Assembly: GCA_003971905.1 (NCBI GenBank)
Contig: RSEE01000051.1
Location: forward strand, 248,001-312,000
Source of the DNA: Moniliella sp. 'wahieum'
Lineage: Eukaryota
Length of the DNA stretch: 64,000 bases
Reading direction: 5' to 3'
The notes beneath the pieces were generated by a model that saw nothing but the letters and a program-made list of their open reading frames with translations, did not search any database and was not told the DNA's origin. Made by a program: the position numbers and the translations under genes. This document shows positions 1,273 to 61,185 of this stretch, one piece after another; within the stretch, counting starts at the first letter, position 1; each line of letters starts with the position of its first letter.

Positions 1273-1344
1273 TGAGCTTGAAGCTTGAAGGGTCAACGTT
1301 TCAACTCAACTCATTCCCTCACCGGTCACCGGTCACCGGTCACC
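1273..1344. repeat. 7-bp-period palindrome array upstream of QCR8: TGA AGCT TGA and (TCACCGG)3TCA
   Basis: tgaagcttgaa at 1279; tcaccggtcaccggtcaccggtca at 1319-1342. Confidence 0.85.
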
Positions 1345-1392
1345 AAACCTTGCCCCTCACACCCGATTCTATTCCATGACTTCGTCGATCCG

Positions 1393-2183
1393 ATGCAGCC
1401 CCTTCAAAGCCTTCTCTCAGCGGCGGCGCGCCTGCGCCCAAGTACGTCAAGTGGGTGCGTATTCTCCCTTGCGCGTCCTCTCTGCCCAGCGTCCGGCTGG
1501 TCCGTTGAGCGGTGAGCGCTGAGTTGAGCGTGGAGCGTTGGGGGTCACACTGTTAACATCGGCCTGTCCTTTTGTCATATCTGCCCTTCGGCTTGGGTAC
1601 TGCGTATGTCTGTAGCTCGGATGGTGGGGCAACATCTCTGGGTATGGCCAGGTCGTCCAGGCTCAGCGTGGCATTATCACCTACAGTATGTCTTTCTCCT
1701 TCCCCCGCGTTCGCTCGTCCCCGTGGACAAGGTCGTTGCAGGTGGTTTTGTGGCTATAGTGACCGGTACGCTTACGCAGTTGGTACGATCCCTGCGTGGG
1801 TGGTTGGTCCGGCGCCGCTTACCACCGCGATCTTTCCTGCTTCTTCTTCCTGTGCCCTGGGATCGATTGGTCCTCGCTCGATCCCTCCTTGCCCCCCGAC
1901 CTGGTGGTCTATGGACGTTCTTGCCCCCCCCCCCCTCCCCCCCATTGGCTAACCGAACGAAACATCTCTATTTCGCAGCTCTGTCGCCCAACCAGGTGAG
2001 CATCACCCGCCACATGTTCCGTGAGCACGCCAAGTGGTTCGCCATTCGTGCCGGCCGACAGGCCTGGGCCGTGCTACCGGCCGTCTGGTCTCTACTATGG
2101 CGTGCTGAACTCGTCCAAGGAATCCAACCACTTCCGCGCTTCCAAGCAGGGCCTGCTCAAGTACGGCCATCACGACGGAGTGA
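1393..2183 (+). CDS. QCR8: Cytochrome bc1 complex subunit 8, 3 exons (introns ~1455-1615 and ~1686-1978), with indels
   Basis: Spliced reading ...PKYVKW|LGWWGNISGYGQVVQAQRGIITYT|LSPNQVSITRHMFREHAKWFAIRAGRQAWAVLP..LYYGVLNSSKESNHFRASKQG matches the UcrQ pattern GWWG..Q+GI.tY.LSP; GTGCGT/GTATGT donors. Not annotated as one ORF in the track. Confidence 0.85.
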
Positions 2184-2633
2184 CCTTGTTCTTTCCGACT
2201 TTGCACTTGACTCGCACCACCACAATCTATTGCTCAAAGGTTCCCATTGATCGAACCGACGATGCAGTACACAAGGCAACAAACAAGTATAAGGGAATTA
2301 GATCGCATAAACAAAGTGGCACCTATAACTTTTGAAGCGTGAAGGGAATGAGGGGAATGAGATCTGAGAGAACACCCTGCCAGCAAGCACCAAGGAGACA
2401 GCGCGAATGCGATAGGTAATACCTCTGGGGAAGGAAAGGCCGAGAGGAGAAACGATGAGGAGAGGCGGAAGAAGGGCAAGACCAGCTTGCAGTCCGTCTC
2501 TGACCAGGACGGAATGTCATGACCACAGAATATGCCACAGACGTGCGGTCATAGCCTGAACATTCGAACCATCAAGCCGAGGTCCGATGCATGGTACCAG
2601 TACAAGCAACAACAGAGCCCATTGTCACCCAGA

Positions 2634-57419: not shown

Positions 57420-58041
57420 GGAAAGTATAAGCGAGAAGGAGCGTCGAGCACCACCGTTGGGGGGCAGGCTGGTGTTGGTTGTTGGGTGTTGACTATTCGC
57501 GGTGGGCTGGTTGACCCAGAAATCACCGCCGGCAACATGGGAGGCAGGGCGGGGGCAGTGTGGGGAGGCTAACCCTACACGCTGGCTAGGTGCCCTGGGC
57601 CGTCGCCTGCTCGCTCGGGGGCGCCCAGCTGCGTCCAACACCGTCGCCGATTCTGCCCATTGGACACGCAACCGGCGATCGGCAGGCGTCCACAGCCCCC
57701 TCCCGTCCTGCCCCCCCGCCGCCTGGAAGGTGGGCGAGGAGTGGCAGGACGCCGCGACGGGTACGGTCGACCGAGCACAGCCAAGCGACCGGACGCCTGA
57801 GGGGACCAACGTTGTCTTCTCTCTCCAAGCTCCACTCTGGGCCCAGGAAATTACACCCTGAACATTGAAATCGGGAATGACGCAACCGTGCCTCGGTGCC
57901 CAGTTGAATATTGAAATCGGAAGACGCTTACCTCAGCCGCGCAGCCCCCCTCGAGCGTTCTCCCAGGCAGCGCGAAAAGCTTCGCGGGCAGCTCGCAGCG
58001 GCCGCCTGGCGTGCTTCCGTCGGTGCCCTCCGCTCCTTGCC

Positions 58042-59831
58042 ATGAACGGCGTCTCGCCCAACTTTGGCCCCTCCTGCGCGATGCGCGCTGGACACGCTGG
58101 CACAAGGAGCAGGTCTACACCGCCCCCCAGGCCTTCCGCGCCGTCGGCGACTGGGGGTTCAAGCAGCGCATGACCTCCCCCTATGCCTATGACCGTGTCG
58201 AGGCCCGCACGCCCAAGCGCAGCCAGAGCGCCGGGACCAATCCCCTCACCGACGCGGCAACGGCCGAGTTTGTCGCCAACGGCGCACACGCCGGGCACGC
58301 CGGGCAGTTTGCATCCCCTGCCAATCGCATGGGCATCTTGCGCCACGTCAAGGTCCGCAACTTGGCCGGCACGTTTGACAACAAGGTCCGCTGGAAGGAG
58401 ACGGAGCGCGCGACGCTCTTCCGCAACGCCTGGTTCGACAAGGGTGCCCGCACGGCCGGCTTTATGGAGGCCTACAACCAGCGCAAGGCTCTTCCTTCCC
58501 AGCCCTTGTGGGGCGACACGTCAAAGCAGCCTCGTCGCCCACCTGGCTCGCTCGGCCTCCCTCCCCGCACAGTGTTTGACCCCACCACACTGGAGGCCAG
58601 TGTGAGCGGAACAGTCAGCGACGCTGCGCCGCCTCGCACACCCACCTCCGGATTGAACATTCCGGGCCTCGAGTCGGCTCCGAGTCTCAAGATGCCTTCC
58701 CCTGCCGAGTCGGCTGCACCCAAGGCGGCCGCACCTGCAACTGCGACCACGACCGTCCGCAGTGCATGGGGAGGCGCTCCTTACATCCTCGATGGTCGTC
58801 TGGCTGTACCGAACTACCACTTCCTCTCGCCCAAGGCGTTTGGCAAGTTTGTCAAGATGGTGGAGAGTTTGCGCCCCGTTTGGCCAAGAAGCTCGATGCG
58901 AAGCAAAAGGAAGCCATCAAGCTCGGTCTTGCCAAAATGCTCCGTCATCAGGCAATTGAAGACGCCAGCGCCAACCCCGAGACCGTCAAGAAATTGCGTG
59001 CGCAAAGCATGCTCTCTTGGCTCGAGAAGGTACCCTCGCTGGAAGAGGTGCCGTGGCAAGCTGCCGACCTGTGGAACGCCGCGCGCAGCACCGATCGCAA
59101 AGAGATGATGGACGTGATTCAACGCAAAGCCCAGCGGAGGGTATTTGCACACCCCGAGTCCACCCTGCTCCCTTACCAGCTGGCCCGGCGCGATCGGGTT
59201 CACCCTACCGGTGGACTGATGTACGCCCAACCAGACGAGATCTTTACCAACCAACTCAACTCGGCTGTGCCTGGTCGTGTGCTGACAACGGTATCCGCAA
59301 CGAATCAGCAGGTGGTGCCTTGTCGCGTCTGACCCAGCGCCGTACCTCCGCTCTGGCCGTATCCTCCGCTGGGCACATGGAACAAGTCCCTGCTGCTGTC
59401 AAGGACATGTTGCTGGCCTGGAACATGCGCCGGACTACCAACCCGCACTCGGAGGCCACCTTCCGCGTCATGGAAGCCGGCATGGCCGTCTTGGGCGGGA
59501 CAACCAACCCAGCCAGGGGCCGCAACGTGCGCCAGGTACAGAACCGTCTCAACCGTGCTTCGTACGTACCCAAGAGCATGGGTTCCGTCCAGGCCACTGC
59601 GCGCCAGTCAAGACGGACGTCGAGGCTACAACCTCCTTCCCTGGTACGAGCTTCGCTGTGGCCGGACGCATTTACCGGCCTGGGTCACAGGACCTGTCCT
59701 CGCTCGAGAAGTTGGATGCTACGATGGATGCCAAGTTGGGTGGTTCGGCGCGCTCCACGGCCCAGAGAATGGACTTGGACGAAATGCTCAAGGGTGTCAA
59801 TGCGGTGCTGCGCGACCGCGCCAACAGGTAA
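58042..59831 (+). CDS. MRP51: Mitochondrial small-subunit ribosomal protein bS1m (Mrp51-like), with indels
   Basis: F..LLRDAR....QVYTAP.AF..GDWGFKQ resembles the Mrp51 GDWGLKR motif; later VHPTGGLMY resembles HPsaGLsY. Confidence 0.7.
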
Positions 59832-61185
59832 TGCTAATGAAATCTATCGGTTGGCTCCCTTCCCAAAGCAAGCGTGCTCGCGATAAGGTGGCGGAAGGGT
59901 GGGCAAGAGAAAGGCAGGAACGGATCGACGGATCGATGCTATTCGCCCCATCGTTCATCCATCCTCGAATGTGCATTCCAGGCCACAGGACCTGACACCC
60001 CCCACCCCATCTGTACTTTCGTTGGTCCTCCTCTCTCTTCTAGCTTATAGCACACTCGACTGGCTTGAGATCTGAGACCTGCTTCTGAGGGACTGGTTCG
60101 AGCTTCACAACTTCAAGCTTCGCTTGCTCTGCCAGCCTCACCAGTTGTGTCCGAACAGTTTCCAGCGCGTCTCTTGCTCATTCATCACGGGGCAGACCGT
60201 TGCCACACTAAAAGGGACAGCTCAACGTTCAAGGTTCAAGTTCAACAGGCATGTCGTAGTGACACCAAGAGTGGCAAAGTGCAAGTGACAAGTGACATGT
60301 GACAATGTAAGGGATCAGGCCTCAGGTCTGTCACTGCTACGGTATAGTATTGAACTAGCTATACCCGAGGTCAACATCTAAGGTATCAAAAGCCCATGGT
60401 AGGGCGAAACGAGAGACATCTAGTTGGGATACTAAGGAATGGGTTGAGGGGAAGTAAAGTAAAGTCCATTTTCAAACGGCAACAGAGAGACTTAGGCCGT
60501 CCTTTCCTCCCTTAGAGCTTACACCAGCCGGCGAGGCAAGCACCACTCAGGGAGGGAGGAGGGCGGTCGTGCCCGGTTGGACGGCCACAGAAAGGGCAGA
60601 ACGGTGCGGGAAATTTTAGACTCAAGAGAGACAGAGGGTAGTAGTAGATAGTGAAGCTTGAAGAAGAAAACGGTGGTTGTGGTTGTGGTTGTGGTTCTGG
60701 TTCTGATTCTGGTGCGGCAAAATGACGAGGGCAGTACGGTACCCCACACCTTCAATTTCCGTCGCTATCCACCCTTCCTGTATAGGATAAGGATAGGGTG
60801 GGGCAAAGGATAAGGAAAAGAGTGTAGGGGCAAGAAAGGGAGGCGATGCAACTGGTAAAGGGGAAATGACAGAGTGGGATGCAATTTGGCAAGAGAGAAG
60901 GACGGGAAGCGGGAAAAAAACTTGGAAGTGGGAATAGTTTGGTTGTGTTGGTGGGTTGGTGTCGGGAAAAGGAGGCAGGATTGTGCGAAAGAACAAAGAC
61001 GCGATAAACCAAGTCGAGATACGAGGTGCAGGGGCGGAGAAAAAAATGTCGCGGGAAGAGTATAGGGCCGCCCGTGGCCGCCGGGCGGTATCCGTCCGTG
61101 CCGTCCGTATCATCCGTACCATCCGTACCAGGATGGGGGTGCAGCACACAATCGTCCCCACAACACGCTAGCACCACACCCTACC

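Follow-up and report, generated by a model that had tools for sequence, protein, structure and literature searches.

The window and its genes

We analysed a 64-kb stretch of DNA from Moniliella sp. 'wahieum' (contig RSEE01000051.1 of assembly GCA_003971905.1, positions 248,001 to 312,000), here called the window, in which short arrays with a 7-bp period recur outside recognized coding sequence. The arrays are framed by T-N-A triplets (TNA, where N is any base) that enclose palindromic tetramers, here called cores. A preliminary description of the same DNA had read them either as phased binding positions of a chromatin or transcription factor or as footprints of a fold-back mutational process; the structure of the repeated unit, and its state in diverged paralogues of another fungus, point to a mutational origin. 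All statistics for Moniliella refer to this one window, and the other DNA considered consists of ascertained metagenome contigs.

The window has a G+C content of 58%, and its genes are those of an intron-containing basidiomycete. Pfam matches on open reading frames (ORFs) identified ribosomal protein L13e, polyprenyl synthase, MAS20, a mitochondrial carrier, SDA1, an RRM protein, RNase T2, an aldo-keto reductase, an ABC transporter, She9 and an RCC1-like protein. We based the gene map on these matches because G+C content by codon position was too weak a signal to split coding from non-coding sequence. The map supports 23,024 bp as coding, and 'non-coding' is accordingly an upper bound that includes many unclassified ORFs lacking a Pfam match. 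A fragment of SDA1 is 65% identical to the protein of Tilletiaria anomala, 52–57% identical to those of other named Ustilaginomycotina and 87% identical to one further protein. On these identities the host lies within Ustilaginomycotina, nearer to Tilletiaria than to Ustilago, and is not itself a Ustilago.

Palindromic cores are enriched at one spacing and in one frame

Pairs of TNA triplets separated by four bases (TNA-N4-TNA) occur 164 times in the window, compared with 86.4 expected under an order-3 Markov background (100 simulations of the window). Under the same background, 102 of these pairs have an identical middle base in both triplets (26.8 expected), 62 enclose a palindromic core (5.2 expected) and 49 do both (1.8 expected, sd 1.3). 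This last count, the same-N palindromic matches, departs from the background by more than 30 standard deviations. With other numbers of bases (k) between the triplets, palindromic cores stay close to background (24 vs 20.1 at k = 2; 1 vs 1.3 at k = 6), and the 7-bp register is therefore specific. Directly adjoining triplets (k = 0) are not enriched (45 vs 35.9), k = 3 is mildly up, and k = 11 is up, as two 7-bp units predict. The peak at k = 4 and the excess of palindromic cores, on which the preliminary description depended, are both present in the window.

The excess belongs to one frame. In a comparison of frames, same-N palindromic matches number 49 for TNA (1.4 expected), and the control frames GNC (3 vs 5.7), CNG (7 vs 5.6) and ANT (0 vs 1.2) have no excess. 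Perfect period-7 repeats of at least two copies are likewise abundant (36 vs 3.9 expected). The unit is a 6-bp palindrome plus one base in 18 of these 36, where simple counting predicts approximately 11%, and the palindrome is of the A....T type in 17 of the 18. Repeats with periods of 5, 6 or 8 contain no excess of palindromes.

Composition within the frame follows the background. Of the 16 possible palindromic tetramers 14 occur as cores, so that the diversity of cores noted in the preliminary description stands and its figure of ten does not; the motif is found at all 24 of the 24 coordinates that it had listed, in degenerate form at 20302–20340 (68% matches in Tandem Repeats Finder). Among 50 independent TNA-core-TNA loci, the paired middle bases are CC in 17, GG in 14, AA in four, TT in two and mixed in 13. 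These pairs track the supply of triplets in the window (883 TCA, 868 TGA, 319 TAA and 280 TTA), and the choice of N therefore mirrors the supply of sites. The two bases that follow the triplet roughly track the background of the corresponding five-base words, with AG the highest at 2.4-fold.

A....T hexamer palindromes are enriched as a class (247 vs 175.9 expected), and the sole carriers of this excess are the hexamers with T at −2 and A at +2 (62 vs 5.6). Isolated A....T hexamer palindromes occur at expectation (111 vs 120.6), which argues against separate dimeric factors that each recognize one hexamer. The palindromes are made by the event that builds the array and did not exist before it.

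The unit is a 5-bp word duplicated around an inverted 2-bp filler

The repeated object is a 5-bp word, TNAxy (W), present in direct copies separated by a spacer, y'x' (P), in which the last two bases of W recur as their reverse complement. Arrays have the form W-P-W(-P-W...), with a complete W at both ends. The filler always pairs with the xy of the W copy to its left, and the core is palindromic for this reason. With the positions of the unit numbered T = 0, N = 1, A = 2, x = 3, y = 4, y' = 5 and x' = 6, period-7 identity runs with an A....T palindrome inside them concentrate at lengths of 5 (15 loci), 6 (8 loci), 12–13 and 18–19, that is, at 5 + 7k (k here a whole number). In 11 of the 39 loci with a run of at least 5 the run extends exactly from the T to the y, phase (0,4), and in seven more it does so within one base. 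The mirror-image phase (5,2) is found in three of the 39.

Word and filler lengths are equally constrained. Among single events that start at T, with W maximal and the filler fully palindromic, a W of 5 with a P of 2 occurs 11 times (0.23 expected); the same W occurs with a P of 1 four times (0.47 expected) and with a P of 3 once (0.03 expected), and words of 4 or 6 are at background level. When all matches to a W of 5 and a P of 2 are counted, those starting with TNA number 52 (0.42 expected) and those starting with ANT, CNG and GNC number 0, 4 and 0. Structures of the form W-P-W that lack the T.A start remain at background level. The event is stereotyped and adds 7 bp.

The window contains 33 distinct W-P-W loci, of which 17 can be read on the plus strand only, seven on the minus strand only and nine on both. 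The 17:7 imbalance is suggestive and not significant (two-sided binomial, approximately 0.06). Counted strand by strand, 34 matches contain two copies of W, six contain three and two contain four. Arrays with different cores abut in one register at 37673–37706 (CGCG, then AGCT) and at 27419–27438 (ATAT, then CGCG). New events at a mutated terminal word explain this arrangement more easily than slippage alone.

Other geometries were considered and rejected. For a 7-bp target duplication with modified junctions, the second base after the last W is x' in approximately 2 of the 12 minimal events, as by chance. A centred target of the integrase type (x'TNAx with a yy' filler) corresponds to phase (6,3), seen once as compared with 11 cases of (0,4). 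A hAT-style hairpin with its 1-nt offset predicts, by our derivation rather than by computation, a complemented flank base, and the loci lack one.

Other period-7 sequences also lie in the window. TGGGC-GC-TGGGC, at 36512–36531, 57317–57328 and 7776–7787, has the W-P-W form with a T.G frame in place of T.A. At 7716–7812 there are 14 copies of CATCGCC (86% matches), a non-palindromic heptamer array without the TNA frame, so period-7 arrays of another kind exist here as well.

Array births in paralogous units of a second fungus

A scan of a metagenome collection for three consecutive TGAAGCT units returned at least 121 loci. Most of them have no further grammar and represent another phenomenon. 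Contig L062 holds eight additional same-N matches (0.4 expected), with the cores AGCT, GATC and CCGG, and further matches occur in L034 (3 vs 0 expected) and L073 (4 vs 0 expected). Pooled over the 121 metagenome loci listed, with the ascertained array masked, matches to a W of 5 and a P of 2 number 36 for TNA, 4 for ANT, 13 for CNG and 6 for GNC. One helicase ORF in L062 shares 86% identity with a protein of Lactarius sanguifluus, which places the signature in an agaric (Russulales), in another subphylum than that of the Moniliella host.

Positions 1–20021 of L062 comprise four tandem paralogue units of approximately 5.5 kb each, 80–89% identical, that carry a MOV10/SDE3-like RNA helicase gene. 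We aligned the inter-gene segments of three of the four units (A, B and C). The first variable site reads CTGAGA in unit C (context ...CG CTGAGA ACCTGCAGC), CTGAGATCTGAG(T) in unit B (context ...CA CTGAGATCTGAGT GCC...) and (CTGAGAT)2CTGAGA in unit A (context ...CG CTGAGATCTGAGATCTGAGA GC...). With W = TGAGA and P = TC, units C, B and A form the series W, W-P-W and W-P-W-P-W. The single-copy state in unit C lacks AGATCT, so the event creates this palindrome.

At the second site, units B and C have AGTAAC and unit A has (GGTAACC)2GGTAAC; read on the opposite strand, it would fit W = TTACC, provided that a single substitution came before the event. At the third, arrays of the AAGCTT type differ greatly in length and point variants have been copied as well, for example in (GCTTGAT)2.9. 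The copying of mutated units and the differences in length indicate that loci behave as ordinary microsatellites after birth. Unit C also carries an extra segment of approximately 650 bp, within which no clean insertion with a target duplication was resolved.

The scan brought up other heptamer arrays. In a soil contig (L020, ~5976–6050; L035, ~5748–5820), (AGCTTGA)4 is followed by TGAAC-GTT-TGAAC-GTT-TGAAC, which has the logic of a 5-bp word with a 3-base palindromic filler and a period of 8. Contigs of low G+C content (L069, L028, L067, L093, L059, L038, L021, L031 and L095) carry GCTTGAA or GCTTGNN heptamer arrays; on the opposite strand these stand just 5' of an apparent ribosome-binding site with a start codon, and the flanks are 74–94% identical among some of these contigs. 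These GCTTGNN arrays are probably promoter-region repeats of bacteria or phages, unrelated to the fungal scars.

Distribution of the arrays along the window

The preliminary description had noticed no arrays in coding exons, and this pattern holds. Only two of the 49 same-N matches fall in Pfam-supported gene sequence, at 56495 and 56502, and both are flanked by exon ORFs of the RCC1-like gene and are probably intronic. The remaining matches occur 5' as well as 3' of genes. A gene-free stretch of approximately 4 kb (36.1–39.8 kb) holds a dense cluster of them, and nearly all of the 33 W-P-W loci lie within the approximately 41 kb that have no gene evidence. Whatever its middle base, a TNA triplet reads as a stop codon on one strand or the other. 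Since a 7-bp insertion also shifts the reading frame, purifying selection explains the absence from exons, and no function is needed.

One set of loci consists of minimal events, read on the plus strand: TGAGA-TC-TGAGA (2358–2369 and 60066–60077), TCACG-CG-TCACG (7063–7074), TAAGC-GC-TAAGC (10043–10054), TAAAC-GT-TAAAC (22300–22311), TCACA-TG-TCACA (22394–22405 and 32643–32654), TCAGG-CC-TCAGG (60315–60326) and TGAAG-CT-TGAAG (60652–60663). Further two-word loci on the plus strand are TCATT-AA-TCATT (7707–7719), TGACG-CG-TGACG (27426–27438), TTATC-GA-TTATC (32898–32910), TCAAG-CT-TCAAG (38377–38389), TAATC-GA-TAATC (39391–39403) and TGACA-TG-TGACA (60292–60304); those on the minus strand are TGATG-CA-TGATG (7786–7797) and TGACT-AG-TGACT (20476–20488).

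Longer arrays include three copies of TCACC-GG followed by TCACC (W-P-W-P-W-P-W, 26 bp, 1319–1344, plus strand) and three copies of TGACC-GG followed by TGACC (26 bp, 37425–37450, minus strand). Two copies of TCAGC-GC plus TCAGC (19 bp, 47481–47499) and two of TTAAC-GT plus TTAA (38125–38142) are listed without a strand, as are AGCTTGA x2.3 (W = TGAAG, P = CT; 1275–1290), TGAAGCT x3.6 (38517–38541), TGATCGA x2.4 in the 5' region of the ABC transporter gene (47412–47428) and TCATGCA x2.9 in the probable RCC1-like intron (56495–56514). On the minus strand are ATCGAT+C x2.3 (7947–7962), AGCTTGA x2.0 at 8038–8051 (TCAAG-CT on that strand) and again at 32450–32463, AACGTT+G x2.4 (10006–10022) and an abutting pair of arrays with the cores AGCT and CTAG (36121–36147). 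The plus strand carries TAACGCG x5.4, a decaying array with 83% matches (39774–39811), and the CGCG-core array, with ACGCGT hexamers at 37673–37690, that runs in 7-bp register into an AGCT-core array (to 37706). TCAAC-GTT-TCAAC-TCAAC-TCA (1296–1313, plus strand) has a 5-bp word with a 3-base palindromic filler and then none. The weakest listed site is a degenerate 7-bp array rich in ACGCG(T) at 20302–20340, 5' of SDA1 and without an assigned strand, which may be a cluster like those of the MluI cell-cycle box.

None of the 49 same-N matches lies inside the young copia-type element (RVT_2, Pol_BBD; approximately 41206–46770), in line with the preliminary description, which had noticed none there. 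The long terminal repeats (LTRs) of this element are approximately 215–219 bp long and identical over their first 188–192 bp; the right LTR has an extra GCCT in its last ~30 bp and a mismatch near its end. ACATGT, an A....T palindrome, stands on both outer flanks, and the target duplication is CATGT or ACATGT. Two unrelated kinds of repeat also occur: a pentanucleotide microsatellite, (CTTTG) in approximately 90 copies with 95% matches, directly 3' of the She9/Mdm33-like ORF (54544–54988), and a 28/57-bp minisatellite (GTAGCTGTCGCTACC...) on the minus strand at 30851–30989, within or beside the RNase T2-like ORF.

Break and repair as the probable origin of the arrays

We read the arrays, with a probability of roughly 0.6, as mutational scars that arise through recurring break and repair and later become heptanucleotide microsatellites, and not as a grammar read by proteins. 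The arrays and the paralogues show the conversion of TNAxy into TNAxy-y'x'-TNAxy, a 5-bp direct duplication with two inverted bases by which a second TNA site is gained, and they show the 6-bp palindrome A-x-y-y'-x'-T arising as its product. Gain of units and decay follow, and the scars survive only outside coding sequence. Each scar holds two TNAxy words, so repeated events and slippage can both lengthen an array.

In the proposed mechanism a staggered break would be made by one cut directly 5' of the T of TNA and another five bases away. Fill-in of the 5-base stagger would give the fixed 5-base duplication, and the xy end would pass through a hairpin or a polymerase turn-around intermediate and gain two palindromic bases before joining. 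The fold-back or hairpin origin offered in the preliminary description survives in part: the 5-bp duplication and the two palindromic bases agree with it, and the strict TNA start points instead to sequence-specific cutting, since the CNG and GNC frames, which would form more stable hairpins, are not enriched. The source may be a cut-and-paste transposon that is still active, a transposase that has been domesticated, or another nuclease. Candidate enzymes could include a transposase of the PIF/Harbinger kind, whose 5-base stagger would be unusual, a protein domesticated from one, or an unrecognised cut-and-paste element. Assignment of the cutting specifically to a TNA-specific nuclease of the PIF/Harbinger type is tentative, with the odds against it. 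We likewise hold it possible, though on balance doubtful, that a TNA-specific nuclease continually breaks the non-coding DNA of basidiomycetes and that host repair leaves the fixed 7-bp scar.

We found no description of TNA-anchored palindromic heptamers in the open-access literature, and likewise nothing there on heptamers in Ustilago, such as the (TCACGAT)n type of U. maydis to which the preliminary description had linked the arrays. The scars share features with each of the closest known systems, yet fail a defining feature of each. Hairpin-type footprints and V(D)J coding joints (Ac/Ds, MULE, Transib/RAG) also consist of a fixed-length word duplicated around a filler whose bases reverse-complement the neighbouring end of the flank (P nucleotides), and hairpins that open 2 nt from their tip classically leave a filler of two bases. 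Transib makes a 5-bp target duplication. The scars differ from hairpin-type footprints in their 5-bp duplication and obligatory TNA start, in a nearly invariant filler length where hairpin opening predicts variation, and in that the 64-kb window holds no resident terminal inverted repeat (TIR) element or transposase domain. A word duplicated in this manner together with such a filler is the standard mark left by excision of hairpin-forming transposons, and for Ac/Ds palindromic flank-derived footprints are attributed to hairpin intermediates in PMC4561436. The same paper gives the target of mPing (PIF/Harbinger) as T-N-A with any middle base, cut 5' of the T to leave 5' overhangs, and reports for PIF/Harbinger a 3-bp duplication and precise excision (PMC4561436). 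The arrays resemble this target in having T-N-A with a free N and in the enrichment of the TNA frame alone; neither a gene of the DDE_Tnp_4 type nor a Myb-like ORF1 was found in the window. According to PMC12730594, fungal hAT duplications are 8 or 7 bp, with hAT7 in rust fungi, and hAT5, with its 5-bp duplication, is an animal lineage. Among slippage products, heptanucleotide microsatellites are similar in their head-to-tail 7-bp units, in the expansion of mutated non-palindromic units and in the presence of one, two or three units among the three aligned L062 paralogues; slippage leaves unexplained the birth from a single TNAxy, the need for TNA, the palindromic cores and the fixed phases of the array ends.

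The most serious competitor to break and repair is a nuclease-free replication error, which we consider unlikely without dismissing it. During strand-displacement or lagging-strand synthesis a polymerase would copy TNAxy and turn around for two bases on the displaced strand, the flap would be kept, and later slippage, aided by the self-complementary units, would expand the array. A direct copy joined to a short inverted copy is what template-switch (quasi-palindrome) mutations produce, in which a short inverted copy of a neighbouring sequence yields a perfect palindrome. The event is polar, with W starting at TNA and filler at the far end only; copy number differs among the L062 paralogues; and the possible plus-strand excess of one-strand-only loci would also suit replication. 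Template-switch mutations, however, are anchor-free and usually leave the length unchanged, whereas the scar adds 7 bp, is anchored at TNA and carries a direct 5-bp copy. Replication error leaves unexplained why TNA alone is used and the CNG, GNC and ANT frames show no excess, and why repeats of periods 5, 6 and 8 are not enriched in palindromes; the fixing of W at five bases and of the spacing at k = 4 suggests enzyme geometry instead. Far less probable is an artefact of chance, assembly or sequencing, to which we give next to no weight: the distance from the Markov background is too large, similar structures occur in independent metagenome assemblies, and the differences between diverged paralogues are explicable only by real evolution.

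The phased binding sites proposed in the preliminary description, at which one or more dimeric factors would read TGA/TCA or A....T hexamers every 7 bp and selection would keep the arrays, are improbable. The confinement of the arrays to non-coding DNA would suit such sites, and several arrays lie 5' of SDA1, polyprenyl synthase, the aldo-keto reductase and the ABC transporter. AGCT cores exceed background 2.4-fold, and ACGCGT, the MluI cell-cycle box found in clusters at fungal G1/S promoters, is itself clustered at 20302–20340 and 39774–39811. With 37673–37690, these sites resemble MluI box clusters in having ACGCGT at a 7-bp spacing 5' of genes. ACGCGT is nevertheless one of 14 cores, and such boxes could be made by the scar process instead of giving rise to it; single products, such as the ACGCGT arrays 5' of SDA1, could have been co-opted as sites. 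Arrays of transcription-factor sites would be expected to favour a single core and to be accompanied by enriched single sites, whereas the cores and all four middle bases follow background proportions and isolated palindromes show no enrichment. Arrays also occur downstream of genes and within what is probably an intron; their exact boundaries at the T and the y have no meaning for binding and suit insertion; paralogous L062 sites are unconserved, differing in the presence of arrays and in unit number; and frameshifts and stop codons already account for the absence from exons. Less probable still are classical excision footprints of the Tc1/mariner style, in which TNA would be a 3-bp target duplication and the core two terminal bases from each inverted repeat. 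This fits the TNA-core-TNA layout exactly, inverted termini would give a palindromic core, and TNA is the PIF/Harbinger target (PMC4561436). At least 14 element families with distinct termini would, however, be required, no such element lies within the window, and xy recurs after the last TNA too often (exactly or nearly in 18 of the 39 loci, and in the excess of single events with a W of 5).

Several observations weigh against break and repair as the origin of the scars. Two flank hairpins predict filler from both ends of the break, whereas the scar filler comes from one end only; filler that the TN end of W would have templated is either missing or ambiguous. Structures with a P of 0 or 1 are not specific to TNA relative to the control frames, and a P of 3 and a P of 4 are represented by one case each in the window, so that a variable filler is weakly supported. 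The scar (5 bp duplicated plus two palindromic) does not match the 3-bp duplication and precise excision of PIF/Harbinger. The only superfamilies known to us with 5-bp duplications are Transib and the animal hAT5, and we know of no Transib or hAT5 lineage in these fungi. In the 64-kb window there is no DNA transposon, no TIR pair with a target duplication and no DDE transposase. The ancestral state is seen at two sites only, both in another fungus and one of them needing an extra substitution, and the evidence base is the single window together with the ascertained contigs.

Implications for basidiomycete genomes

If a TNA-specific nuclease does continually break this DNA, the arrays would represent an undescribed mutational signature common to Ustilaginomycotina and Agaricomycotina. 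Each scar doubles its own target, so the process would be self-feeding and its products might be called 'scar microsatellites'. It would make 6-bp palindromes, those of the ACGCGT type included, from arbitrary sequence and thereby provide a steady supply of dimer-binding sites in promoters. For motif discovery there is also a caution: such arrays will score as strongly enriched 'palindromic motifs' without being binding sites.

Should the pattern hold genome-wide, approximately one scar per kb of non-coding DNA would derive from a single sequence-anchored process, which would then have a major part in shaping what lies between the genes of these fungi. An odd class of heptanucleotide microsatellites would be explained, and a marker system would be at hand because unit number varies. 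The process would direct attention to a nuclease with its repair pathway (a cut at TNA, a 5-base stagger and two palindromic bases) outside the described transposon superfamilies, and it would be a mutational, non-adaptive source of many of the perfect palindromic hexamers in promoters.

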